From assembly GCA_021650915.1 (NCBI GenBank), contig CP091279.1, forward strand, positions 1,620,001 to 1,652,000: a stretch of DNA of 32,000 nucleotides, read 5' to 3'. Below, piece by piece: positions 2 through 29,814 of the stretch (the first letter of the stretch is position 1; every line of letters begins with the position of its first letter). The stretch is from Candidatus Brocadia sp. Lineage in GTDB: Bacteria > Planctomycetota > Brocadiia > Brocadiales > Brocadiaceae. The notes beneath the pieces are model-generated. The model worked only from the letters and a program-made list of their open reading frames with translations, was not told where the DNA came from and did no database searches. The translations under genes and the position numbers were made by a program.

Positions 2-238
2 GTACACTTTCCGACCGATATGAATTTATTGTGGGATGCGGGACGCAAGAGTCTGGACATGATAGAGGATGCAATAGAGGAAGGCATCCTGGCGGGGAAA
101 GGATGGCGCAAGAGCAAATATTGGAGGAGAGAGTTAAAAAAGCTGATGAGGATAAGCGCAAAGGCGTCAAGCAGCGGGGGGGAAAAACAAGGAAGAGCAT
201 GTGAGGAGTTACTTGGAATTATCGAGGGGTTTGAGTGA
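2..238 (+). CDS. Transposase orfA, C-terminal fragment (5' end outside the window)
   Basis: Translation (..HFPTDMNLLWDAGRKSLDMIED..GIIEGFE*) is identical to the C-terminus of the 246-aa ORF at 5040-5780. Confidence 0.8.
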   Translation, partial: VHFPTDMNLLWDAGRKSLDMIEDAIEEGILAGKGWRKSKYWRRELKKLMRISAKASSSGGEKQGRACEELLGIIEGFE

Positions 239-962
239 AAAGATAGGAGCGAGTCTGTTAGCCATCTACGAAAAGGTGCTAACGACGAACCAGGTAGACA
301 AGCATGCAGGGAAAATAGGGACACTGGAGTATTTTCACGGGATGTTGAATAAACAGATAGACCTGGTGGAGAGAAGGGTGATCCGGGATGAGGTAATACC
401 GGCGGCAGAAAAGGTTCATTCGTTGTTTGAGCCGCATACGGAGTGGCTGTACAAAGGCAAGTCAAACAAAAGGGTAGAGTTGGGACATAATATTCTGGTA
501 GCAAGCGATCAGTGGGGTTTCATCGTGGACCATGTGGTAGGAGAAAAACAGGCGGATGTATCGTTGGTAATTCCATTGGCAGATAGGTTGTTGAGCCGTT
601 ACGGAGAAGGCACAATAAAGAGTATAAGTTTTGATAAAGGTTTTTACAAGAAAGAGAATAAAGAGTTGCTGAGTTTGTATATACCAGAGGTAATCCTTCC
701 CAAGAAGGGCAAGAAGAATAAGGCGGAACAGGAAGAGGAATCGGGTAAGACATTTAAGAAGCTAAGGCACAAGCACTCGGCGGTAGAATCGGATATCAAT
801 CGTTTGGAGCATCACGGCTTGGATAGGTGTCCGGACAAAGGGCTGCATGCCTTTAAAAGATATTGTGCAATGGGCGTGTTAGCTGCGAATTTGCACAAGC
901 TGGGAAACGTGCTGCAGGAGAAGGCACGGAAGCAGTGCGAAAAGTTGCGAAAAGCCGCCTAA
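201..962 (+). CDS. Transposase orfB (DDE domain, C-terminal half), in the +1 frame relative to orfA
   Basis: The 253-aa product is identical to 5743-6504. ..LVASDQWGFIVDH.. and ..HKHSAVESDINRLEHHGLDR....AANLHKLG resemble the second Asp and the Y/R/E C-terminal block of IS4/IS5/IS1182-type DDE transposases. Confidence 0.85.
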   Translation: MRSYLELSRGLSEKIGASLLAIYEKVLTTNQVDKHAGKIGTLEYFHGMLNKQIDLVERRVIRDEVIPAAEKVHSLFEPHTEWLYKGKSNKRVELGHNILVASDQWGFIVDHVVGEKQADVSLVIPLADRLLSRYGEGTIKSISFDKGFYKKENKELLSLYIPEVILPKKGKKNKAEQEEESGKTFKKLRHKHSAVESDINRLEHHGLDRCPDKGLHAFKRYCAMGVLAANLHKLGNVLQEKARKQCEKLRKAA

Positions 963-1156: not shown

Positions 1157-1263
1157 CAGACACTACGTACTTGTAAAACCTTGATTACAATTATTTTGTC
1201 GATTGTTTTCCGTACGTCTGTCAACCCTCCATTCTGCAAAATGCTTTTGAAGTTTACACAAAA

Positions 1264-1315
1264 TAAAAAAGCCTTACTGCAAAAATGTTCATCCAAACAT
1301 CTTCGGCAGTAAGGC
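1264..1315 (-). terminator. Intrinsic terminator / expression platform of riboswitch A
   Basis: The minus strand reads AGCCUUACUGCCGAAGAUGUU-UGGAUG-AACAUUUUUGCAGUAAGGCU followed by UUUUUU. This gives a stem of about 21 bp including G-U pairs. It is paralogous to the hairpin at 27872-27924. Confidence 0.75.
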
Positions 1316-1332
1316 TATCTTTTTGTCGCTAC

Positions 1333-1428
1333 AGCAAGTTCGTCTTTCGCTACCTACGTCCGTGTACGTCTGGAAAAGACCCTTTACTTTGCGTCCCCTG
1401 ATCACTCAGGGTTTGCCCTTATCGTGAT
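1333..1428 (-). promoter_or_regulatory. c-di-GMP-I (GEMM-I) riboswitch aptamer, copy A
   Basis: The minus strand reads CACGAUAAGGGCAAACC-CUGA-GUGA-UCAG-GGGACGCAAAGU...ACGUAGGUAGCGAAAG. Compare my recollection of the Vibrio cholerae Vc2 aptamer: CACGCACAGGGCAAACCAUUC-GAAA-GAGUGGGACGCAAAGCC...CCGGUAGGUAGCGGGG. Shared elements are the GGGCAAACC junction, a GNRA-capped P1b, the GGGACGCAAAG core and an identical GUAGGUAGCG 10-mer. Confidence 0.8.
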
Positions 1429-1448
1429 ATATTTTATTTCATAATCTT

Positions 1449-8396: not shown

Positions 8397-11318
8397 TCAG
8401 GGGTTCACTGACCTGGTGAGGCGGATGCCAACGCGGTTGAAGCGGTTGTCAGGCGCGTTGCTGCTCCGGTTAGCCGACCGGCAGTTCTGCGCAACGCTGG
8501 TCCAACTGCCACCGCGCATCACGCGGGAGGAGCCCTTCTCAGGACCTTTCGGTTCCTCTTTAGGACTCGATTTATAGTAATCCGCATCATACCAATCAGC
8601 GCACCACTCATAAACATTACCATGCATGTTAGCCAGTCCAAGGGAATTGAGGTTTTCCGCGCCGGCGTGGGGATTGACTTCATCTACGGCATGGGCATGC
8701 GGTTTATCGGCCTCGCCGAACCAGGCATGGCTAGTCAAATCTTCCGGGTTGTCGCCAAAATAATATTGGGGGCGCCTGGCACTTTCCCCACCCCTGGCTG
8801 CATACTCCCACTCAGCCTCTGTAGGAAGGCGTGCATTCAGCCAGAGGGCACAATAATAGGCTTCAAACCAAGTGTTGCTCACAGCGGGGTGACTGTCTCC
8901 TCCATAATTTGGATACTTTTTTCCTAAGGGGAAATTTGCCAGCATGCGGTTTGTCACCGGATGTTTCGCCATAAGAAAGCTATCAACTTTTACCTGATGG
9001 GCCGGTCGTTCATTATCTCCATGGTTATCATCCCCCATGAGGAAGGTACCGCCCTGCACCCCTATCCATTCTAAGCAATTAGCCGGATCATTTAAAAATG
9101 CCCTCTGGCGCTCTGCGGCATGTTCCAGATCAAGGAGTTCATAGAGTATGCCTCCGGGTTCAAGGGGTTTAAGCTCCATGTTCGTCAGCAGGATCTGGGC
9201 GCGATAGATCACCTCGCAGTCGCGTTCACCGCATTCCAACAACATGATGCGCAGCGTTTCCTGCACAAGGTTTTGACGTTCGGCTTCAGACACCAGGGGG
9301 AGGGATTGCTCCAAAGAATCGATCAGCAGCAGCTTGCCCTGATTGCCCTGCTCTTGTTCAATCAGTGGCTGAATGATTTCATCAACCGACGCCTTGACTT
9401 CCGTGGTTACCCGCAGCGCAAGTGGCCGGTTTATCGTCCACAATCCGTTAATCAGCGCTTTAACGTCATCATCCTGGACCAGCAGTCCGGCATAAAGCCT
9501 GACTACTTCCTCCCAATCCGGATTGGCTGCATGCCTGATGACAAATTCCTGCTTCTTTTCCAGCAACGCCAGGGCCGTGAAATACTCCCACAGGGATCGA
9601 TGGACAAAGGTGTACCCTTCCTTCAGGCGTTGAATCAGCCCGGTTTCCCGCTGCAGCAGGTCAAGAACTTCATCTGTTTTTCCCGGTAAGGCAGCGGTTG
9701 GATGGCTCCGGCCAATAACCTTCACATGATCGGGGTCGAAATCAGCCTCCTGCCACAAAAAAAATTTTAAGGAGATATCCTTTAATAAACCAAGTGCCTC
9801 CTCATACGTAATGTGAACCTTTCCCGTCTGTCTTTGATCCGTATCATAGGGACGATCCAGCAAAGAGCGGGTGCAGTTTGCGTAAAGCTGACTACGGCGT
9901 TCAATCAGTTCTGCCTTGTCATCGATTCCAAAAGTAAAGCAGATCATACTCAGCAGGAAGGGGTTGGCTGCCAGGGCGCGGATGCGCGGTTTGTCCCCGA
10001 AGGTTTTCCACAAGACATCGATTTTATCCGTGTCGTCTTTAAACCATTTGCCCAGGTATTCTTTCATCACAAGATCGTCCAACGGCAGTAAATCCAGGGG
10101 ACGGTATCCCGGATAGTCTTCTGATTTGAGCCCAATAGGACGGGAAGTGACGATTATCCTGCAGCGAGGATATTTCTTCGCAAACGCATCCATGATACCG
10201 GCAATTTTTTTATTTGTCTCCGGGTCTTCAATTTCATCAAGGCCATCCAGGAACAGCGCCATCGGCTGTTCCAGAAAACGCCTTTTATCACAGAGAACAT
10301 CGAGCATTTCAGGACTGTCACTATCCTCATTGATCTGCTGTTTTACAAACTCATCCAGGGTATTTTTGGCGCAACAAAAATCACGCAATCGCAAATAAAC
10401 CGGTATCAGTTCCTTTTTACCTTCTGCTCCAAGGGTGGCAAATCGGTGGACAAGATAGCGCATCAATGTCGTCTTGCCCCCTCCCGGCAGTCCACGCACC
10501 AGAAACCGGGGTTCCTTAAATCCATCAATAAACAGGTCTTCTATCCCCAGTGGCTCGACATCACTACCTGTGGCAACTCTCTGCCAGTCACTTAAATACA
10601 GCGGCACAAAGCCCTCGTCAATAGAGGCCATGTGATCGAACGTCTCTCCGCTCTTGCCTGCATGCTGGCACTGACTGCCGAAGAAATACATGGATGAAAA
10701 TTTCAACTGAATCCGTTTGCAGTAGTTGCGCATGAAGTCCTGAGTTTCGCTTCTCTGCAGACTCCAGCCCGCCCCTGCTCCGGTAAGTTTATACTCATGA
10801 CGGATGAAGTTTGACATATGTTGCCTTGCGAGCCGCTCGAACTGAGACACATCCTGAAACGTCCCGTACAAACCTTCTTTGGGAAATTCATTCCGGAATC
10901 GTATGACAAGCCCAAACTGCTCATGCTCTTCCGTAGTCTGCGGAAAGAACGGAGTTTCTTTGAAGTACATCATTATCTGAGGGCGGTTGTTTTGCCGCCA
11001 GCCCCTGATGGCCGTGCGGATCTCGTGCCCCGTCCCTGATTGTGCATCGCGGGTGGGCGTACCAAAGCGCTTCCAAAATATACCAAGCAGAATATCGCAG
11101 TCTTCAATACGTAAGATAGGATCAATGAGTCCCTGAGGGCCATCGGCGTGAAACCCAGGATAGGCATCGGTCTCCCAACGGCTTAATTCCAGGAGTAAAT
11201 TGCGATCGGCGGCGACACCGCGGTTTAACTCGTCAATGACAGACTCCATCACCTTCCGTTCTTCTTTTACATCTCCCGGCGACGCAAGCACAATTCGAAG
11301 ACACTGCTTTGCCTTCAT
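8397..11318 (-). CDS. NLR-like STAND NTPase, 973 aa: DUF4062-like N-terminal domain, NACHT, helical linker, and a C-terminal FGE/SUMF1-type (sulfatase-modifying-factor-like) domain
   Basis: aa 8-125: ..IVLASPGDVKEER..DAYPG..CDILLGIFWKRFGT..SGTGHE..MMYFK (DUF4062-like pattern). Walker A is GLPGGGKTTL (aa 276-285) and Walker B is ALFLDGLDE (aa 354-362). aa 749-970: ..GGTFLMGDD...RPAHQV.V..F.MAKHPVTN....RGGSW...CRSANR....RVGIRL (FGE-sulfatase family). Confidence 0.9.
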   Translation of the reverse strand: MKAKQCLRIVLASPGDVKEERKVMESVIDELNRGVAADRNLLLELSRWETDAYPGFHADGPQGLIDPILRIEDCDILLGIFWKRFGTPTRDAQSGTGHEIRTAIRGWRQNNRPQIMMYFKETPFFPQTTEEHEQFGLVIRFRNEFPKEGLYGTFQDVSQFERLARQHMSNFIRHEYKLTGAGAGWSLQRSETQDFMRNYCKRIQLKFSSMYFFGSQCQHAGKSGETFDHMASIDEGFVPLYLSDWQRVATGSDVEPLGIEDLFIDGFKEPRFLVRGLPGGGKTTLMRYLVHRFATLGAEGKKELIPVYLRLRDFCCAKNTLDEFVKQQINEDSDSPEMLDVLCDKRRFLEQPMALFLDGLDEIEDPETNKKIAGIMDAFAKKYPRCRIIVTSRPIGLKSEDYPGYRPLDLLPLDDLVMKEYLGKWFKDDTDKIDVLWKTFGDKPRIRALAANPFLLSMICFTFGIDDKAELIERRSQLYANCTRSLLDRPYDTDQRQTGKVHITYEEALGLLKDISLKFFLWQEADFDPDHVKVIGRSHPTAALPGKTDEVLDLLQRETGLIQRLKEGYTFVHRSLWEYFTALALLEKKQEFVIRHAANPDWEEVVRLYAGLLVQDDDVKALINGLWTINRPLALRVTTEVKASVDEIIQPLIEQEQGNQGKLLLIDSLEQSLPLVSEAERQNLVQETLRIMLLECGERDCEVIYRAQILLTNMELKPLEPGGILYELLDLEHAAERQRAFLNDPANCLEWIGVQGGTFLMGDDNHGDNERPAHQVKVDSFLMAKHPVTNRMLANFPLGKKYPNYGGDSHPAVSNTWFEAYYCALWLNARLPTEAEWEYAARGGESARRPQYYFGDNPEDLTSHAWFGEADKPHAHAVDEVNPHAGAENLNSLGLANMHGNVYEWCADWYDADYYKSSPKEEPKGPEKGSSRVMRGGSWTSVAQNCRSANRSSNAPDNRFNRVGIRLTRSVNP

Positions 11319-12236: not shown

Positions 12237-13955
12237 GTAACTATTCAGCGTAATATCGCCCCCTATCGTTACGAGCTGGCAAAATCAGGCAATTTGCCGC
12301 GAAATACCATCCGTAATGCCTGACTTAAATTTACCCCTTGTTTTCGACAAGTCGAGAGATAACTACGGATGAGGCAGAAGATCTTCGCTCCGTCCAGAGA
12401 ACGAAAACAGCCCGATATCTTCTGCTGAACCTTCGTCATCCTGATATCGTTTTCGGCCAGGTTATTCGTGAAGGGGACGTTTTTATTGTCCATAAATCTG
12501 AGCACATCACCCTCATACTCCCGTAATCGTTCCAGGAGATTCCGTGCTTTTGTCCTTTTTACCCGCCCTCTTTTCCCCTTACGGTTCGTTTCATCAGGGG
12601 GCGGGCTTTCAGCTTCTGCGTTTTGTAATATCCCCCGGTACCTTTGCCGGTATTTCTCAGACTCGCCGTTTTCCAACAAACCCCCCGCATCCTTTACCGC
12701 ACGGTTTATCTCTTCGAGCAGGGCTTTCATCTCTTTCGCCCACGGTTGCTTCTTATCCTCTTCCCACACCCCCTCCAATTCCCTCAGGTGGTGTGCATTA
12801 CAGAGCGCATGTGTACAGCGGGTGTAGGTGTAATACGCCTTCAAATGGTCGTGACAAAGAATCCCCCGAAACTGGGGCAGTATCCCGATACTATCCATCG
12901 CTTCCGTCCCACGTCTTTCGTGAGGGAAAAAGTGTGTCCACAAACTATTGGATGCACTATGCAGCCAATACCTGTCTCCGTTCTTGTTGATGCTCGTTTC
13001 ATCTGCCTGCAATACCTCTGATTTGACAAGTTCTTCCTTGGTTTTCCCCTCGAAGGCTTCCAGAGATTCATAGGCATCCTTGTTAAAGTTGTAAAGAGAG
13101 CCTTCGCTCAGCGGTATCCCCATCTGCTCCTCAAAATACTCCTGGATCCTCTTATAGGGTATCAATTGATACTGTGACATATATACTGCGTGCGCTTTCA
13201 AATCCGGCCCATACTGCACTGCCTTTGTCACCCCTTCCGGAAATGACGCTACAAACCTACTTCCCTCCGCATCCTCAACTATCTCTGCCCGATACTCCGT
13301 TACCACCCTTGAAATCTTCATATCAAACACCTGACGCGACTCATAACCGATCAACCTGTATTTGCCGCTCGGATACTTCCTCCGGTCTACTTTTATTACT
13401 TCCACCTTATCAGGATTGGCTACCTTTTTCAGCGTTACTCCATCATGACCCTCTTGCCCACCTGCCTTCCTCTCTCCTTTCGCCCTGCTCTTTCTCGTGC
13501 GATTCGGATCGCTTGCGGGCGGCTTACTACTGTTGCGACTGTTCCGGTTCAGACGTCCTACCAGCAGCGTTATCACTAACACCAACAACTCTATCATTGA
13601 CCTTATGGCAGGTGACAGACCTTTTTCCTCTGAAAGCAGCTTTTCTACTTTCCGCAGCGTTGCATCTATATCTATATTCTCTATCGTCAATGGATGGCAC
13701 CGGTATTAATAGCCTGAAATCATCTCCTGCGGCTATTATACCACAGGCTTTTTCACCCATTTTTTTCACCCTCTACCGCCCTACAAAACTCTGTAATTCT
13801 CTGGCCGAACATACCCCACACCTCTCTTTGCAAAAACCTCCGATGGGCTACAGTGGCATCCTCCACAGCCATTTATTCTACCAACCAATTCTACGGCCCC
13901 CTTTTCTCATGTTGACTGTCAACTAAATTCTAAAATATTTTCGCTGAATAGTTAC
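12237..13955 (-). mobile_element. IS66-family insertion sequence, single-ORF type, intact (1719 bp)
   Basis: Perfect 14-bp terminal inverted repeats GTAACTATTCAGCG (12237-12250) and CGCTGAATAGTTAC (13942-13955). They are flanked by an 8-bp direct repeat ATAAAAAC (12229-12236 and 13956-13963). 8 bp is the characteristic IS66 target duplication. Confidence 0.9.
12269..13690 (-). CDS. IS66-family transposase (TnpC-type), 473 aa
   Basis: ..LQADETSINKNG..WLHSASN...LCHDHLKAYY....ALCNAHHLREL.. resembles the IS66 DDE core with its conserved C.AH.RR/L motif. There is an N-terminal coiled-coil/basic region and no accompanying tnpA/tnpB ORFs. Confidence 0.9.
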   Translation of the reverse strand: MTIENIDIDATLRKVEKLLSEEKGLSPAIRSMIELLVLVITLLVGRLNRNSRNSSKPPASDPNRTRKSRAKGERKAGGQEGHDGVTLKKVANPDKVEVIKVDRRKYPSGKYRLIGYESRQVFDMKISRVVTEYRAEIVEDAEGSRFVASFPEGVTKAVQYGPDLKAHAVYMSQYQLIPYKRIQEYFEEQMGIPLSEGSLYNFNKDAYESLEAFEGKTKEELVKSEVLQADETSINKNGDRYWLHSASNSLWTHFFPHERRGTEAMDSIGILPQFRGILCHDHLKAYYTYTRCTHALCNAHHLRELEGVWEEDKKQPWAKEMKALLEEINRAVKDAGGLLENGESEKYRQRYRGILQNAEAESPPPDETNRKGKRGRVKRTKARNLLERLREYEGDVLRFMDNKNVPFTNNLAENDIRMTKVQQKISGCFRSLDGAKIFCLIRSYLSTCRKQGVNLSQALRMVFRGKLPDFASS

Positions 13956-21889: not shown

Positions 21890-23443
21890 ATGAAAAGAGA
21901 AGATGTCATAAAAATCGTTTTAAAATCAGAGTCCCTGCCTACCCTGCCAGCCGTTGCATGCAAACTCATCTCCATCTCGTCTCAGGAAGAAATAGGAATG
22001 AAGGAAATTGCAAACCTGGTATCGAAAGATGCCTCTCTGTCTGCAAAGGTATTGAAAATAGCCAATTCAGCCCTCTACAATTTCCCGGTAAAAATAAGCA
22101 ATGTGCATCAGGCTGCTTCAAGAATCGGATTGAACGCAATCAGGAGCTTAGTGCTTTCCTTTTCATTTTTATCAATCAAGGCAAAGAACGCGGGAAATAC
22201 TTTCAACTATGAGATGTTTTGGGAAAAATCCCTTGCGAACGCAGTCGCAGCAAAACTTGTCATGGCTGAGGTTAGCAAATCTGACGGAGAAGAGATATTC
22301 ATCTCCGGACTCTTACAAAACATAGGAGAACTGATTATGGCTGGATGCTTCCCCAAGCAGTATGCACAAGTATTGCAGGAAACATCGGGTAGCGAAAACG
22401 ATCCTGCTGGAGCGGAAGAACAAATTATTGGAGCAGATCATGCATATATTGGCTATGAGATTGCTAAAAAGTGGGGATTCCCTCAGGAGTTACTCATCCC
22501 TATTCTCTATCACCATTCACCGCAAAACTATAAGGACGACGACAGCAAGCTCAGGCTTGCGGTCAACGTTGTCCATTTATCAGGAATTGTTGCGAATATC
22601 CTTTATTCAACGAACCCTCAGAAATATCACCAAATGTTTCTGGATGTGTCAAAGGCAACGTTCGGTTTCAATGATACCGTTGTTAGCAGGATAATGGATA
22701 ATGTCGTCACAGAAATCAACGAGACCGCCGGATTGTTTGGCCTTCATGTCAAGAACCACAAGCCAATTGAGGAGATACTGCAAGAAGCCAACGCGTCTCT
22801 CAGCAGCATAAACTTAACGTACGATCAAATGAACCGGGAACTGAACGACACGAAAATCCAATTGCAGAGGCTTACCAAAGAACTTGAAGAAAAAAACAAA
22901 CACCTTGAAAATCTTGTACAATTGGACAGCTTAACAGAAGTATATAATCAGGGTTGCTTTCAAAAAATGCTCGAAAATCAAATCAGCCTGGCAGTTCGTA
23001 AAAATTCATCGCTTAGTTTAATTATGATCGATGTCGATTATTTCAAAAGTATTAATGACAATTACGGCCATTTGGTGGGCGACGCTATTTTAAAAGAATT
23101 CTGTGCCTTAATGAGAAAATCTTTTCTGGATCACGACATGATCTTTCGGTATGGGGGTGAAGAATTCGCCATTATCCTTGCTGGCATGGCTGAGCGTGAT
23201 GCCAGAATTGTTGCTGAACGGTTACGGGAATCGATTGCCAACCATACCTTTATAGTTCATAACAACAAACATCATGTTACAGCCAGTTTTGGGGTTGCGG
23301 GCATAATGCCGGCACTCGATGGTCTTACAAAAAAAGACCTTATTGCCTTTGCGGACGCAGCCCTCCTTGAATCCAAAAAAACAGGGCGCAACAGAGTTTC
23401 GGTGTATAGTCAGAAAAAGAATTTACTCTCCCAGCCCGCTTAA
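21890..23443 (+). CDS. HDOD-domain / coiled-coil / GGDEF diguanylate cyclase, 517 aa
   Basis: N-terminal ..LPTLPAVACKLISI..(HDOD pattern)..YHHSP.. A coiled coil follows (..LNDTKIQLQRLTKELEEKNKHLENL..). The C-terminal domain reads ..DVDYFKSINDNYGHLVGD...RYGGEEFAIIL with an intact GGEEF active site. No RxxD I-site lies five residues upstream (LDHD instead). Confidence 0.9.
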   Translation: MKREDVIKIVLKSESLPTLPAVACKLISISSQEEIGMKEIANLVSKDASLSAKVLKIANSALYNFPVKISNVHQAASRIGLNAIRSLVLSFSFLSIKAKNAGNTFNYEMFWEKSLANAVAAKLVMAEVSKSDGEEIFISGLLQNIGELIMAGCFPKQYAQVLQETSGSENDPAGAEEQIIGADHAYIGYEIAKKWGFPQELLIPILYHHSPQNYKDDDSKLRLAVNVVHLSGIVANILYSTNPQKYHQMFLDVSKATFGFNDTVVSRIMDNVVTEINETAGLFGLHVKNHKPIEEILQEANASLSSINLTYDQMNRELNDTKIQLQRLTKELEEKNKHLENLVQLDSLTEVYNQGCFQKMLENQISLAVRKNSSLSLIMIDVDYFKSINDNYGHLVGDAILKEFCALMRKSFLDHDMIFRYGGEEFAIILAGMAERDARIVAERLRESIANHTFIVHNNKHHVTASFGVAGIMPALDGLTKKDLIAFADAALLESKKTGRNRVSVYSQKKNLLSQPA

Positions 23444-23498: not shown

Positions 23499-24419
23499 TT
23501 ATTCCAAAACCTTTCTGACAAAACCACCCTGCGCATCGAGCCTTTTCCTTGCCTCCGGGTAATCGACACCCAGTTTCTGCATAACGATAGCAACCTTTGC
23601 ATTCCCAAAAGCAGCTTCCAGCAGTTTCTTCGCAGCTTCACGGCTGATACCGGTAACCGTCATAATGATGCGCTCTGCACGGTCCGTAAGCTTTGCGTTG
23701 GTAGCCCTGAGATCGACCATAAGGTTCTCATAGACCTTGCCAATCTTAATCATAGAAGCCGTGGTCAGCATGTTTAGGATAAGTTTTGTAGCGGTGCCAG
23801 CCTTCATCCGGGTAGATCCGGTTATGACTTCAGGGCCTGTAATTGGCCTGATGACGACGTCGACGTCAAAATGGGGGGTGGTTTCTTTGTTGCAGCAGAG
23901 GAAGATAGTTTTTGCGTTGCGCTTTTTTGCTTCAAAAAGCGCCCCCATCACATAGGGAGTTGTTCCGCCCGTCGTGATGCCCACAACGACGTCCTTATGG
24001 CTCACCTCTCTTAGCTGGATGTCCTTTGCGCCATTTTCCGGGAAATCTTCAGCCCCCTCTACCGATTGAAAGACGGCCTTTTCACCACCGGCAATGATTC
24101 CCATAATAAGGCCGGGGTCGGTGCCATAGGTAGGAGGGCATTCCGATGCATCCAGAATACCCAGTCTTCCGCTGGTACCAGCACCCACATACAGAAGCCG
24201 GCCACCATCCCGAAAAGCCGAAACAATTACGTCAACCGCCTTTGCAATATGTTCCCGTTCCTTGTGGACGGCGGTAAAGACATTGGCATCCTCGGCATTG
24301 ATACTATCAATAATCTCCAGGGTGGTTTTGCAATCGATATTGAAAGTACGCTGATTGCGCTGTTCGGTGAGCAATTGAGAACGATCTTCCATCTCCATGA
24401 TAGGTGCGCATATTACCAT
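23499..24419 (-). CDS. murQ: N-acetylmuramic acid 6-phosphate etherase, ~300 aa
   Basis: SIS-domain motif VGAGTSGRLGILDASECPPT plus ..LLTEQRNQRT..ID.. at the N-terminus, as in MurQ. Alternative starts are at 24398 and 24392. Confidence 0.9.
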   Translation of the reverse strand: MVICAPIMEMEDRSQLLTEQRNQRTFNIDCKTTLEIIDSINAEDANVFTAVHKEREHIAKAVDVIVSAFRDGGRLLYVGAGTSGRLGILDASECPPTYGTDPGLIMGIIAGGEKAVFQSVEGAEDFPENGAKDIQLREVSHKDVVVGITTGGTTPYVMGALFEAKKRNAKTIFLCCNKETTPHFDVDVVIRPITGPEVITGSTRMKAGTATKLILNMLTTASMIKIGKVYENLMVDLRATNAKLTDRAERIIMTVTGISREAAKKLLEAAFGNAKVAIVMQKLGVDYPEARKRLDAQGGFVRKVLE

Positions 24420-24491
24420 TGTCTCAGAAGGTTGTCAAAGAATATTTGGCGGAATATTTACAAAGGAAAGAAGTTCCTTTAAGATATCCCT

Positions 24492-27400
24492 TTACTCCTT
24501 TAAAAACCGTGCTATTTGCTGGAACAGAGAAATTGATCCCATACCTCCTAATGGCGTTAAAATGGCCATTAGGATTGGATTCTGGAAAGAAATGGGCGGA
24601 GAAAATGCCCCGTTTTTTAGTTTCTGAATTTCATTCATAACATGCTCGATAGACCTTGACCGTTGTTCTATAAGTTTTGATTTCTTAACATCAAATGCAT
24701 CGACTTCTTCGGGCAATTGGGTATTGAGCAATTTCAGTTGTTCTTCACGCAACTGAGTTATTGTTTGCTGGCGGGCTTTTTTTGTTACATGAAAGAGGAT
24801 GATCGTACAAGTCAATGCAATCAGTGTCGTTAATCCAATAACAATTGCTAAAGGTACGGTCCATGTCCAATTGTCAAAATATTTGTGACGGGACACAAGG
24901 AGTAAAAACAAAATCAAAAATGGATACTTTATCATTTCTCCAACCACCTTCGTTCTTTTCCAAATGATATTCATTTTGAACCAGTATCCCCATGTATCAT
25001 GCATCATCTGATTATCATATTTATGCAGGCATGTATCGTAGAGATATTTGCACTTTTTATTATTTTTTTTACACATATCATTTTCTAAGGAGCAGTGGAT
25101 ATTCATAACCTTTGACCAATTTACTTTTTCATTTAGGTCGATTATCCGGTTGATAAACTTTATGCAGAGCCCGGTGGTATAAATCACAAACATGATGAGA
25201 ACTAACATAAATAAAAGGCTTGAAATGAGGATACATTTATCCACAATAAAACTAATTCCGCCACGATAAGGAATAGATGGTTTACCGCATGTAAGAATGA
25301 ATACATAGCCCATCCCTAAATACATTGCCGCCCCACCTATGCTGAATATCCATTTCTTTTTGGATATTTCACTTGCTTGAAATCTGTTCCAGACCTCAAG
25401 AATGTTAGAGATTGTATCGCCTTTTCTCTTTGACATATCTGTGCCATTTTCGGGTTTTTGTAAAGACTGGGTTATTTCCTTATTGTTACACACGATACCC
25501 TGTATAGAAAAAAGCAGAAAATAGAGCGCAAGAAATCCACCGAACAGGCGAAGCAGTTCAGTTGGCCAGATACTAATACCATCAAAAAACGTTATCGGTT
25601 CACCCTCCCCACTCAACGACGACTTGAATGCATAAACGGTTAAGGCTATAAAAGACGTTATGCAAGAAATTAAAAAACCCATCCAATACTTCTTCCAAGG
25701 GTCATCTATTCCAGCCTTTTTAACTTTTTGTAGATTGTAATAAACCAAACCGCTGAATACGCTCGTCGGAAGAAATAACATGAAAAAAAGATAAAACAAC
25801 CAATCTTTAAGTGGCTTGCCTTTCCAACAGTCATTGCGATTAGGATGCAACAGCTTTGTTCCGGAGGAGTTTGATTTACCTTTTGCAACAGGAGTCAAAT
25901 CGTATGCCCCTCGATGTCCGATTTCAAAAATACGGGGTTGGTTCCTGTTTCCATTGAAATCAAATTCGTCTTCGGCTATGATTCCTAAAGCTTGGAGTGC
26001 AGCAAAGAACAAAGAGGTTTGGTAGGTAGAACGGAATGGCGGTGTTGCCCATTGATATTGAGGATGCAATTGAAGTCCATAACTGGATGCCACAACAAGG
26101 TTCCTCGTCCAGGGAAGTTCGGTATGATGATAAAGTCGGGCATCCAGGTCAGTGGTAAAAAAGATAGCATTGGGGAATTGATCATGCAGTGCCCTTAAGA
26201 TAAGTAATTTGTCATATATGTCGTTACCAAGAACACCAATTGCACATACATTGTATTTGGAATATTCTTGTTGTATCCTCTCGGTCAGGCGGCGTATGTA
26301 ATCAAATTGATCCTGACCCAAGGGTTGTTCAAATGCCGGAGTGAAATAGCTAGCATCAGAATTTTTCTTCATTTTTTGTGCACTATCAGTTGACGTCCTG
26401 GGAGGTGAATTGGAATCATCGGCTGCATTAGATATCATACCGTCAATGCCACGCATGTAACTGAAGATGTGTATCTTTTCAAGCAATGCAATATTGTTCC
26501 CTGTGTTGGACGTTTGGTTGTGTTTTCCACCATATTTCTCCAAGAAAGATATAATGAAAGATACCGGTAATGTCCGTCCGTAAAATGTATCCCAATCGCT
26601 GATGAGAACGATATCTCCAGAGGTTTTACTTCCGATATTTCTGTCACGCCGCCCCAGTTCTTCTACTAATTCACGGGTCAACTGTTGATCAGGATGAATT
26701 GATCGTTGTAAAGAAACCTTCGTTTCTCTCAGAATAGCATCAAAAAGGTCTGTATCCTTTAGAAAAGGCTGCACCTCATAATACATTTTGATTAGCACAG
26801 GAATGGATATCGGTTTTTTTGCCATCATCAAAAGCGGATCCGCCGTCGCCCAGGGTGAGTATATCTTAAATTCCACATGATCAGGTACTGGTCTTTGTCG
26901 TTCGTTTTTTAAATTATTTTTAGCCATTTCATAGGCGGATTTTGCATCTTCGAATTCCTTTTGTGACTGGGTTATTTGTTTTTTCTTAGAGACATTCTTT
27001 TCAATATCATCTAAAACTTCTTTTGATTTAAAATATTTGCACATCTTTCTGAGAAATTCCTTTACAGAACTGTCGTCTGGAATTGCCTTTGAAATAATTT
27101 CTTCAAGGACGGTAGAATTGGTGGGGCCAAGAACTTCAATAGTTTGTCTGCGCTGACTTTCCTGTCGTGGAGATTTAAATTCGTCAATGCAATCCTGAAC
27201 ATGCCGAAATAAACTCCTTAATTCTTCGATCCACTTATCTGAAAAATACTCTTCGCCCAACCAGAGCACAAGTATTGCATCATATTCCTTTTTCATCTGC
27301 GGTGACCACAGATATGGATTTGTTGGAAATAGATCCGGCAGAAACCATTCATAAGGTATGGTACGAATCAGACCACAGATCTCTCTTTCAAAATACCCGA

Positions 27401-27812
27401 TGTGCTCAGCATCCTTAGGCCTGTAGCCAGCAACATGAAGTGCGGAAAGAACGGCATATCGGCTTCGCAATCGGACTTCAAGATTTTCTGTGTAAAGTTC
27501 TGCAGTTGTCATAACTGGTAAGATTAATATATTTTTAATCTCAAGATCTAACTCTGGTGTAAAATCTTTGGGGCCTTTACCCTGGTTTTTTGTATACCTC
27601 AGGTAATTTTCAACCGCCTGAAAGGGGTCTTGCCACATACGCGCCAACACGTTCTCTTCACCCAATGTAGACGCAGCCTTTTTCTCGCCAGGCGATGGAC
27701 GAAAGGTAAGTAAAGGAGCATAGAACTTGACGATTCCGCCTGCAATGATGGCAACAATTAGCAGGAGAACAGGAACTGTATACGAAGATTTTTCTTCAGG
27801 TTGGTCAGCCAT
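24492..27812 (-). CDS. Large uncharacterised membrane protein, 1106 aa: N-terminal TM anchor, ~640-aa soluble region, 7-8 TM C-terminal module, and a coiled coil
   Basis: It is a single uninterrupted ORF. Hydrophobic spans fall at about aa 13-30, 671-691, 709-729, 752-775, 821-841, 858-884, 962-974, 985-1008 and 1079-1097. A heptad-like segment spans aa 1010-1066. I recognise no catalytic or family motif. It is preceded by a riboswitch plus terminator. Confidence 0.85.
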   Translation of the reverse strand: MADQPEEKSSYTVPVLLLIVAIIAGGIVKFYAPLLTFRPSPGEKKAASTLGEENVLARMWQDPFQAVENYLRYTKNQGKGPKDFTPELDLEIKNILILPVMTTAELYTENLEVRLRSRYAVLSALHVAGYRPKDAEHIGYFEREICGLIRTIPYEWFLPDLFPTNPYLWSPQMKKEYDAILVLWLGEEYFSDKWIEELRSLFRHVQDCIDEFKSPRQESQRRQTIEVLGPTNSTVLEEIISKAIPDDSSVKEFLRKMCKYFKSKEVLDDIEKNVSKKKQITQSQKEFEDAKSAYEMAKNNLKNERQRPVPDHVEFKIYSPWATADPLLMMAKKPISIPVLIKMYYEVQPFLKDTDLFDAILRETKVSLQRSIHPDQQLTRELVEELGRRDRNIGSKTSGDIVLISDWDTFYGRTLPVSFIISFLEKYGGKHNQTSNTGNNIALLEKIHIFSYMRGIDGMISNAADDSNSPPRTSTDSAQKMKKNSDASYFTPAFEQPLGQDQFDYIRRLTERIQQEYSKYNVCAIGVLGNDIYDKLLILRALHDQFPNAIFFTTDLDARLYHHTELPWTRNLVVASSYGLQLHPQYQWATPPFRSTYQTSLFFAALQALGIIAEDEFDFNGNRNQPRIFEIGHRGAYDLTPVAKGKSNSSGTKLLHPNRNDCWKGKPLKDWLFYLFFMLFLPTSVFSGLVYYNLQKVKKAGIDDPWKKYWMGFLISCITSFIALTVYAFKSSLSGEGEPITFFDGISIWPTELLRLFGGFLALYFLLFSIQGIVCNNKEITQSLQKPENGTDMSKRKGDTISNILEVWNRFQASEISKKKWIFSIGGAAMYLGMGYVFILTCGKPSIPYRGGISFIVDKCILISSLLFMLVLIMFVIYTTGLCIKFINRIIDLNEKVNWSKVMNIHCSLENDMCKKNNKKCKYLYDTCLHKYDNQMMHDTWGYWFKMNIIWKRTKVVGEMIKYPFLILFLLLVSRHKYFDNWTWTVPLAIVIGLTTLIALTCTIILFHVTKKARQQTITQLREEQLKLLNTQLPEEVDAFDVKKSKLIEQRSRSIEHVMNEIQKLKNGAFSPPISFQNPILMAILTPLGGMGSISLFQQIARFLKE

Positions 27813-27871: not shown

Positions 27872-27924
27872 AAAAAAACCTTACTGCAAAGATATTTTCT
27901 CAAAACATCTTCGGCAGTAAGGCT
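27872..27924 (-). terminator. Intrinsic terminator / expression platform of riboswitch B
   Basis: The minus strand reads CCUUACUGCCGAAGAU-GUUUUGAGAAAAU-AUCUUUGCAGUAAGG (16-bp stem) followed by U7. The stem sequence is shared with the terminator at 1264-1315. Confidence 0.75.
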
Positions 27925-27925
27925 G

Positions 27926-28028
27926 TCTTTATTCCTGGAAGCCGTATTTTCTAAACCACTTCCGTGTAGGCTTAAAGATCCACTACTTTGCGCCCCCTGA
28001 TCACTCAGGGTTTACCCTTATCGTAATG
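27926..28028 (-). promoter_or_regulatory. c-di-GMP-I (GEMM-I)-like riboswitch aptamer, copy B (divergent)
   Basis: The minus strand reads UACGAUAAGGGUAAACC-CUGA-GUGA-UCAG-GGGGCGCAAAGU. Over this 44-nt 5' half it differs from copy A at 3 positions (the first base plus the two core changes). It is followed by CCU..GGAAG...CUUCC.AGG in the P2 position. The 3' GGUAGGUAGCG motif of copy A is absent. Confidence 0.55.
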
Positions 28029-28177: not shown

Positions 28178-28235
28178 AAAAGTGTGTCATGGCACACTTG
28201 TGTGACGTCACATAAGTGTGCCATGACACACTTTT
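28178..28235. repeat. 58-bp near-perfect palindrome made of three tandem GTGTG...CACAC sub-palindromes
   Basis: AAAAGTGTGTCATGGCACACTT-GTGTGACGTCACAT-AAGTGTGCCATGACACACTTTT. The 22-nt outer arms are perfectly complementary, and the centre is TGACGTCA. Confidence 0.95.
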
Positions 28236-28383
28236 AAAAGTAATAGACAATATCTCCCTAAACGGACACCTTCAGTAATGCCATTTCCCTTGACTGTCCC
28301 AGTATTACTGATAAAATGAGTACACTTTTTTGGCATTTATTTTAAATCTCTCTCTATTTAGGTCTTTCCGGGATATAAAACAT

Positions 28384-29814
28384 ATGGAACATTTCGAACA
28401 GGAACGTCTTGATAAACTCCAAAAGCTGCGCGAAAAAGGGGTAGAACCCTATGGAAAACGATACGACAATACACAATCTATACAGTCAATTTTGGATAGC
28501 TTTATCGCAGACCGGGACGATATAAAGATCAGGGCTGCCGGGCGCATCTCAACCATGCGACCTCATGGGAAAACGGCGTTTTTAGACATACGAGACTGGA
28601 CGGGGAAGATACAGGTCTATATAAAACTTGACAAAGTTGGGCCGGAAAAATTTGAGCTGTTTAAATTACTAGATCTGGGCGATATTGTCGGCGTGGAAGG
28701 CGCACTCTTTAAGACCAGGACCGGCGAAATCACTATTTATGCGGATGACTTTACCGTCCTCACAAAATCCCTGCTAACACCGCCGGAGAAGTGGCACGGA
28801 CTGAAAGACGTGGAGTTACGGCACCGGCAGCGGTACGTCGATTTGTTTACCAATACCGAGGTCATGGATACCTTCCTGAAACGGATAAAGATCATGAAAC
28901 ACATACGGAAATTCCTGGACGACCGGGGGTTTGTAGAGGTGGAAACGCCCATGATGCAGTCGATCCCCGGCGGCGCCGTGGCACGGCCTTTCATTACCCA
29001 TCACAATGCCCTCGATATCGATCTCTATCTGAGGATCGCCCCGGAGCTCTATCTCAAGAGACTGCTCGTCGGGGGAATGGAACGGGTCTATGAGATTAAC
29101 CGTAATTTCAGGAATGAAGGCATCTCCACAAAACACAACCCGGAATTTACCATGATGGAGCTCTATCAGGCATACAGTGACTACAACGGCATGATGGAGC
29201 TTACGGAAGGACTGGTGACATCGCTGGTGAAGGAACTGTACGGTGGATATGAGATACCTTTTGGTGAACGGAAGATTGACATGACGCCGCCCTGGCGCCG
29301 GGCAACTTTCTGTGAATTGCTAAAGGAGTGCAGCGGGGTGAGTTTTGAAGACGAGGCTGGATTGATGAGAAAGTCAAAGGAATTGGGACTGGAGACCCAG
29401 GGTGTAGACAGGGACAATATGGCCAACAATATCTTTGAGCATACCGTAGAACCGACGTTGAACAATCCCACCTTTGTGTTAGACTACCCCACCTCAATAT
29501 GTCCCTTAACAAAGGCCTGTGAGTACGACCCGCGTTTTGCCCAGCGGTTTGAGCTGTACATGGCGTCGATGGAAGTTGCCAATTCGTATTCAGAGCTTAA
29601 CGACGCCCCGGAACAAGACAAGCGGTTCCGCGAGCAGTTAGGCACCGAGTCCGATATTACCGGCAAGATAGACGAGGATTTCCTTACCGCTTTGAAATAC
29701 GGTATGCCTCCGGCGGGCGGGCTTGGGATTGGCATTGACAGGCTTATCATGATCCTTACCAACAATGTCTCCATTCGGGAGGTCATCCTCTTCCCGCTCC
29801 TGAAGCCAAAATAA
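28384..29814 (+). CDS. lysS: Lysine--tRNA ligase, class II, 476 aa
   Basis: [24 protein letters not shown] is the typical LysS N-terminus. ..[23 protein letters not shown].. is class II motif 2, and ..[15 protein letters not shown].. is motif 3. The ORF-track start at 28330 is an extension. Confidence 0.95.

Follow-up and report, generated by a model that had tools for sequence, protein, structure and literature searches.

Genomic context of the leader element

The window analyzed in this study is a 32,000-nt stretch of contig CP091279.1 from Candidatus Brocadia sp., and all coordinates given without a locus name refer to it. We examined an element at 27872-28028 (minus strand), which lies upstream of a gene for a large membrane protein, together with its neighborhood and with a second element of the same kind near the other end of the window:

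24492-27812, minus strand: ORF of the 1106-aa membrane protein, with its ATG at 27812
23499-24419, minus strand: murQ, 72 nt downstream of the 1106-aa gene
1262-1434, minus strand: paralogous GEMM-I aptamer and terminator, with an RF03167 match of 64.6 bits (gathering threshold 59) at 1301-1426

The 72-nt gap before murQ contains a promoter-like site (TTGACA-17-TAATAT, 24410-24438, minus strand), which points to independent transcription of murQ. Convergent with murQ, and about 1 kb from the gene placed under the riboswitch, is the gene of an HDOD-GGDEF protein (21890-23443, plus strand) whose GGEEF motif is intact; this protein is probably a diguanylate cyclase. On the other side, a near-perfect palindrome at 28178-28235 (29+29 nt, 97% complementary, no spacer, centered on GTGACGTCAC and flanked by A and T runs) separates the riboswitch leader from lysS (28330-29814), which is divergently oriented. 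On neither strand does a gene end at this palindrome, whose form suggests a bidirectional terminator or an insulator.

A complete c-di-GMP-I aptamer

When the whole window was searched with Rfam cmscan, the minus strand at 27910-28026 matched the c-di-GMP-I (GEMM-I) family RF01051 over the full model (positions 1-87 of 87), with a score of 50.3 bits against a gathering threshold of 35 and an E-value of 3.6e-07, which was computed for the full window against all Rfam families. The GEMM-I features named in the preliminary description, that is, GGGUAAACC, the 6-bp P1b with its GUGA loop, GCGCAAAG, the P2 helices CCU/AGG and GGAAG/CUUCC and the U7 tail, were all present. It had recognized only the 5' half of the aptamer, which turned out to be too narrow a view, as the 3' half follows after a 40-nt insertion in the distal part of P2. 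This insertion is the sole large departure of the aptamer from the RF01051 model. The parts of the element are as follows:

27906-28028, minus strand: complete c-di-GMP-I (GEMM-I) aptamer including P1 (RF01051 model positions 1-87 of 87)
28028-28025 and 28023-28022 pairing with 27909-27906 and 27913-27912, minus strand: P1, from the alignment mapping
28017-28009, minus strand: GGGUAAACC junction, from the sequence
27990-28015, minus strand: P1a/P1b hairpin, from the Rfam alignment and the fold
28010-28005 with 28000-27995, minus strand: P1b, 6 bp (CCCUGA/UCAGGG), from the sequence and the fold
28004-28001, minus strand: GUGA tetraloop capping P1b, from the sequence
27993-27986, minus strand: GCGCAAAG core, from the sequence
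27916-27987, minus strand: P2 hairpin, from the Rfam alignment and the folds
27927-27910, minus strand: aptamer 3' half GACAGCCUUACUGCCGAA, after the 40-nt P2 insertion
27879-27922, minus strand: intrinsic terminator hairpin, with a fold energy of -25.2 kcal/mol (z -6.5)
27872-27878, minus strand: U7 tract of the terminator, from the sequence

P1a is a 2-bp stem (G28015-C27990 and U28014.G27991) that is separated from the 6-bp P1b by a 3x3 internal loop (AAA/GGC), and the two aptamer hairpins are joined by an AAA linker (A27989-A27987). It has been reported that the linker between GEMM hairpins is 'virtually always AAA' and that GEMM RNAs with a GYRA loop are expected to lack a tetraloop receptor and normally do so (Weinberg 2007, PMC1950547). 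The base of P2 is conserved (AGUA/UACU, GG/CC, UCUUU/AAAGA and the AG bulge), and in the minimum-free-energy fold the 40-nt variable insertion forms the distal stem with CCU/AGG and GGAAGU/GGCUUCC. This distal stem is different in every Brocadia copy, and conservation of the GGAAG/CUUCC helix does not extend to the two closest orthologues; the helix belongs to the variable P2 stem and does not define the class. Two pairs of P2 are non-canonical (U27982-U27920 and A27979-C27925, marked by two 'v' signs in the Rfam alignment). They may weaken the aptamer, and L003 and L011, the orthologous leaders closest to this one, retain both. The aptamer alone folded to the family structure at -38 kcal/mol (z -3.7), and none of 200 shuffled sequences folded as well as the aptamer or the terminator. 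As judged from its alignment to the family, the Candidatus Brocadia element at 27872-28028 is a c-di-GMP-I (GEMM-I) riboswitch of the standard type, with all its parts present.

Terminator and predicted direction of switching

The terminator stem had previously been given as 16 bp abutting the 3' end of the aptamer. On the basis of the current folds, it comprises 20 bp (27922-27902 with 27898-27879, with a bulged C27913 and the loop GAG at 27901-27899), or 22 bp if the A-U and G.U closing pairs are counted, and it shares 27906-27922, that is, 17 nt of the P2 and P1 3' strands, with the aptamer. Its 5' arm (27902-27922), which overlaps the aptamer 3' strands (27906-27925), is made up of the P2 3' strand (27922-27916), the junction with the C92 equivalent (27915-27914) and the P1 3' strand (27913-27906). 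Because the terminator is built from the 3' strands of the aptamer, the two structures are mutually exclusive, and the overlap with P2 and P1 therefore predicts an ON switch in the presence of ligand. In a previous survey, 78 of 322 GEMM RNAs had a terminator overlapping P2, an arrangement that was read as ligand-induced expression, and GEMM RNAs were common in Planctomycetes (Weinberg 2007, PMC1950547). Folding with and without the terminator, as had been proposed for this element, placed the combined sequence in the terminator state at -59.7 kcal/mol, compared with -38 kcal/mol for the aptamer alone, both energies being derived from a model that ignores ligand and co-transcriptional kinetics. 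The U tract is separated from the ATG at 27812 by 59 nt.

The predicted mechanism would run as follows. With no ligand, the nascent leader would form the 20-bp terminator (27879-27922) with its U7 tract, and RNA polymerase would halt approximately 60 nt upstream of the ATG. At high c-di-GMP, the ligand would be bound at the three-helix junction, where, by analogy with the Vibrio cholerae Vc2 riboswitch, G28016 would read G-alpha, A27989 would occupy the A47 contact position and C27914 would pair with G-beta. Binding would lock P1 and P2, and since these hold 17 of the 21 nt of the terminator 5' arm, the terminator could not form and the 1106-aa gene would be transcribed. We infer the direction of regulation (ON) from this architecture, and it seems probable to us, with good though not full confidence, that this canonical c-di-GMP-I riboswitch is a transcriptional ON switch of the 1106-aa membrane protein gene.

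On the minus strand upstream of the aptamer, a simple scan for promoters revealed no sigma-70-like site. Upstream of other copies (1301-1426, L007 and L011), TTGACA/TATTYT motifs were seen by eye.

Conserved positions and ligand specificity

Alignment to RF01051 placed the equivalents of Vc2 G20, A47, C92, C44 and G83 at 28016, 27989, 27914, 27992 and 27923, respectively. The ligand-contact nucleotides G28016, A27989 and C27914 are all canonical, corresponding to the G20, A47 and C92 that serve as c-di-GMP contacts in Vc2 (PMC4744006, PMC6140456). C27992 and G27923 are present, in the sequence alignment, at the positions of the interhelical C44-G83 pair, which has been described as 'universally conserved' (PMC4744006). 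In the cGAMP-type GEMM-Ib RNAs, an A at Vc2 position 20 is the specificity determinant (PMC6140456); this adenine signature is absent from the 27872-28028 aptamer, which has G28016. The aligned nucleotides lead us to expect that the RNA would bind c-di-GMP.

Compared with the paralogue, the element had been described as carrying C-to-U and A-to-G changes at two normally conserved positions, and these substitutions are indeed present. Their supposed unusual nature did not hold up. C22->U corresponds to U28014, which stands on the 5' side of the second P1a pair and forms a wobble with G27991. Among 11 Brocadia copies, the C22-G45 pair is CG in six, UG in four and UA in one, the UA case being the leader of the orthologue of the 1106-aa gene in L011. 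A43->G corresponds to G27993 on the 3' side of the internal loop and occurs in 7 of the 11 copies. The same substitution was found by a pattern scan in unrelated GEMM-I RNAs of IMG/VR viral contigs, scoring 83.2, 74.1, 53.3 and 53.2 bits:

L151:869-956: viral-contig GEMM-I with A43->G
L173:280-370: viral-contig GEMM-I with A43->G
L183:3751-3841: viral-contig GEMM-I with A43->G
L199:2383-2482: viral-contig GEMM-I with A43->G (53.2 bits), which pairs U22-A45 together with G43

The two highest-scoring of these RNAs (83 and 74 bits) have a GAAA loop and a classical receptor. Since A43->G, and in one case U22-A45 with it, occurs in these viral contigs, positions 22 and 43 are naturally polymorphic in GEMM-I. 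On such comparative evidence, the C22->U and A43->G substitutions are benign.

The c-di-GMP-I-GGC variant (RF03167) was also considered. The aptamer scored 50.6 bits against this model, nearly equal to the 50.3 bits for RF01051 and below the gathering threshold of 59. Brocadia copies align well to RF03167 because P1 is part of this model and long insertions in P2 are tolerated by it. The two consensus sequences differ (GACGCGAAg in RF03167 and GACGCAAAg in RF01051), and the aptamer has GCAAAG where RF03167 reads GCGAAg, that is, A and not G. The diagnostic 'GGC' position, as read from the model consensus, is presumably the equivalent of A47. The GGC variant was rejected by both the score and the diagnostic base.

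Occurrence in other Brocadia genomes

The loci closest to the 1106-aa gene were all from Candidatus Brocadia. In all seven Brocadia orthologue loci (L001-L005 from genomes, L007 and L011 from metagenomes), the leader of the orthologue contained a GEMM-I RNA above the gathering threshold, with scores from 45.3 to 67.4 bits and the same terminator after each. The distance from GEMM-I to the gene was 45-75 nt in six loci and approximately 245 nt in L002 and L007, and the ligand-contact nucleotides and the terminator were intact in all eight orthologous leaders. Thus, the original proposal that the 1106-aa gene has a leader with a riboswitch and a terminator is borne out by the RF01051 match and by the presence of the same link in every Brocadia orthologue locus found. 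No GEMM-I was found upstream of more distant homologues (0 of 79 loci, Scalindua-type ones included), and therefore the link between riboswitch and gene arose within, or is specific to, the genus Brocadia. Because murQ has its own promoter-like site and the genes downstream of the 1106-aa orthologues differ between species, the 1106-aa gene is probably the only target of the riboswitch.

We aligned 11 Brocadia copies of the aptamer and terminator (alignment A3). Standard pairs made up 94.5% of the cells in the aptamer and 98.2% of those in the terminator, and sliding the partner columns reduced standard pairing to approximately 30-50%. Compensatory changes were observed in P1, the 2-bp stem and the terminator; for example, the inner pair of P1 is CG in six copies, UG in three and UA in two, and terminator pair 155-174 is GC in eight, AU in two and GU in one. 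Covariation among the 11 copies was not significant (49 of 500 and 66 of 500 shuffles reached the observed score), and these statistics are uninformative because the Brocadia copies are too similar and their core is nearly invariant.

Extra cassettes of aptamer and terminator were found in two of the loci:

L002:348-490: aptamer and terminator before a secreted 190-aa Lcl_C-domain (adhesin-like) protein (714-1286)
L005:6782-6909: aptamer and terminator directly after the 1106-aa orthologue, with no obvious ORF behind

Brocadia thus carries near-identical GEMM-I and terminator cassettes before different genes, which offers an entry point to the c-di-GMP regulon of anammox bacteria. Aggregation of anammox cells is of practical importance.

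Alternative explanations

The preliminary description had called the element divergent and proposed that it might either have changed its ligand specificity or be degenerating. That the RNA is a GEMM-I specificity variant for 3',3'-cGAMP or another cyclic dinucleotide would fit the departure of C22->U and A43->G from upper-case positions of the RF01051 consensus, as well as the two P2 mismatches. However, position 20 is a G (G28016), in contrast to the A of cGAMP riboswitches (PMC6140456), A47 and C92 are canonical, U22 lies within a covarying pair and G43 is found in the 83- and 74-bit RNAs with GAAA loop and classical receptor. In addition, A43/C22 and G43/U22 alternate at the same locus, before the same gene, in sister species. 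A change of ligand is very improbable in view of these observations. The suggestion that the element is a copy of the paralogue at 1301-1426 that is decaying and no longer works, with a terminator that is constitutive or an element that is inert, could draw on its lower score (50 versus 65 bits), the two non-canonical P2 pairs and the lack of a recognizable promoter. Yet the form with U22, G43 and the P2 mismatches is kept before the orthologous gene in both L003 (Ca. B. carolinensis) and L011, the 2-bp stem of L011 shows a compensatory U-A pair, and the contact nucleotides and terminator have stayed intact in 8 of 8 orthologous leaders. Moreover, the higher-scoring paralogue is the one without a downstream gene. 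Orthologue conservation and compensatory changes thus speak against decay, which we consider improbable.

It should be noted that the polarity of the switch is an inferred direction, and that the promoter scan covered sigma-70-like sites only. On these grounds, one might think of a working c-di-GMP riboswitch that is turned OFF by its ligand, or of one that controls translation instead of transcription. Such a design is distinctly improbable, since the ligand-stabilized aptamer and the terminator, which uses the aptamer 3' strands, are mutually exclusive, no separate antiterminator is present, and the start codon with any ribosome-binding region lies 59 nt past the U tract and, in the minimum-free-energy fold, does not pair with the aptamer. 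The transcriptional ON switch is the reading that we retain.

Comparison with known riboswitches

The Brocadia RNA resembles the GEMM type without receptor and with a P2-overlapping terminator (RF01051; Weinberg 2007, Figure 2B) in its P1 hairpin of 2 bp and 6 bp with a 3-nt internal loop, its GNRA (here GYRA) loop, the AAA linker and the variable-length P2. The likeness extends to the competition between the terminator 5' arm and the P2 3' strand, the location in a 5'-UTR, the membrane- or environment-related target gene and the occurrence in Planctomycetes. It differs from that type by the 40-nt distal P2 insertion, the U.G wobble in the 2-bp stem, the G for A in the 3' internal loop and the two non-canonical P2 pairs, and, unlike that type, its terminator also takes C92 and the whole P1 3' strand. 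With Vibrio cholerae Vc2 (3IRW and related structures), it shares the G20, A47, C92 and C44-G83 nucleotides according to the family-model alignment. In Vc2, a GAAA loop docks into an 11-nt-type receptor in the second hairpin, whereas the Brocadia RNA has GUGA and lacks the receptor. To our knowledge, Vc2 has no overlapping intrinsic terminator after the aptamer. The GEMM-Ib cGAMP riboswitches, such as Geobacter Gs1761, belong to the same fold family (Rfam clan CL00126) and have A at the G20 equivalent, where the Brocadia RNA has G.

Little is added here to riboswitch biology, as the class, its occurrence in Planctomycetes and the ON design by terminator competition were already described in 2007-2008. 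What remains of interest is the uncharacterized protein encoded by the target gene, together with the spread of the cassette, which is specific to Brocadia.

The membrane protein predicted to be regulated

Sequence searches of the 1106-aa protein against Pfam, NCBIfam, PADLOC and PDB returned no match. The protein is recorded exactly and falls in a 90% cluster with Candidatus Brocadia fulgida BROFUL_00549. Its family, whose members have 1000-1100 aa, is distributed over many phyla (166 protein-search matches and more than 550 metagenome loci) and has the conserved motifs ARLWQDPF, LISEWDTxYGR, FSYMRGIDG, AIGVLGSDVYDKLL, IFFTTDLDARL, IPPFRDxYQTS and GISIWPTE. The predicted c-di-GMP induction is the first regulatory clue for this widespread and unannotated family of approximately 1000-1100-aa proteins.

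An AlphaFold (AF2) model (pLDDT 74.9, pTM 0.74) has an N-terminal TM helix, a domain of approximately 600 aa, seven TM helices and a helical C-terminal tail, and the seven hydrophobic helices, several of which are very long, are supported by hydropathy. Foldseek matched the ~600-aa domain (residues ~90-640) to LivK-like substrate-binding proteins and to the Venus-flytrap modules of mGluR and CaSR. For the LivK-like proteins, the E-values were 6e-5 to 1e-4, with a probability of 1.00, TM(target) of 0.53-0.57, rmsd of 7.5-9 A and 10-11% identity. The N-terminal model thus superposes on LivK-like proteins and class C GPCR ectodomains with no family match at the sequence level, and, as modeled, this domain may have a type-I periplasmic-binding-protein (Venus-flytrap) fold.

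The C-terminal domain, modeled with a pLDDT of 79.7, gave insect GR/OR proteins as all of its best 15 Foldseek matches, and these matches were weak (E-values of 0.008-0.05, TM of 0.3-0.4). Proteins of the 7TMIC superfamily are defined by seven TMs, an N-in/C-out topology, longer intracellular loops, long TM4-6 and a split TM7, and bacterial members of the GR/OR superfamily have been reported (Bac7TMICs) (Himmel et al. 2023). The C-terminal domain of the 1106-aa protein has seven hydrophobic helices. Its TM values against insect GR/OR reach only 0.3-0.4, and the loop-charge pattern of its 7TM block suggests N-out/C-in, opposite to that of the 7TMICs, so that the resemblance to this superfamily serves here as no more than a lead. 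On the modeled fold, a receptor-like or channel-like role is plausible. The more specific idea, which we regard as unlikely at present, is that the protein could be a new bacterial chemoreceptor in which a Venus-flytrap domain is fused to a GR/OR-related 7-helix domain, under a c-di-GMP ON switch that only Brocadia has. A fusion of flytrap and 7TM module is not known to have been described for either family. If the idea were true, anammox cells with high c-di-GMP, that is, aggregated cells, would deploy a small-molecule-gated channel or receptor.

The paralogous copy and mobile elements

The P1b hairpin of the element at 27872-28028 recurs unchanged in the paralogue at 1262-1434, as does its 18-nt terminator 5' arm GCCTTACTGCCGAAGATG. 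This exact 18-mer is common to both copies, and 0 of 100 shuffles reached two matches. The segment GGUAGGUAGCG of the paralogue, which the 27872-28028 element had been said to lack, lies within the paralogue's own variable insertion, an unaligned insert in the Rfam alignment, and by that alignment it is a non-core element. The best model for 1301-1426 was c-di-GMP-I-GGC, despite the canonical A at the diagnostic position, and the copies L002u, L004u and L005u likewise scored best against the GGC-variant model. Caution is thus needed in annotation, as Brocadia copies may match the 'GGC variant' best and yet have the canonical diagnostic A.

No plausible ORF was found downstream of the paralogous riboswitch on its strand. 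A fragment of a DDE_Tnp_1 transposase (201-962, plus strand) lies approximately 300 nt beyond it on the opposite strand; therefore, the target gene of the paralogue may have been lost to IS insertion. This fragment is one of several mobile-element remnants in the window, which also contains an IS66-family transposase (12269-13690, minus strand) and a 973-aa protein with a NACHT NTPase fused to an FGE-sulfatase domain (8397-11318, minus strand). In L011, a group II intron domain match (RF00029, 42.8 bits, 607-677, minus strand) was observed approximately 600 nt upstream of the riboswitch.

Finally, a perfect 8-nt tandem repeat (TGTGTTAG, or ACACACUA on the RNA strand, 4.6 copies) occupies 1449-1485 of the window, between a promoter-like TTGACA (1517-1512)/TATTTT (1493-1488) pair and the paralogous riboswitch. 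A single CTAACACAC motif is found at the equivalent leader position in L007 (~1100-1125) and L011 (~1290-1300).
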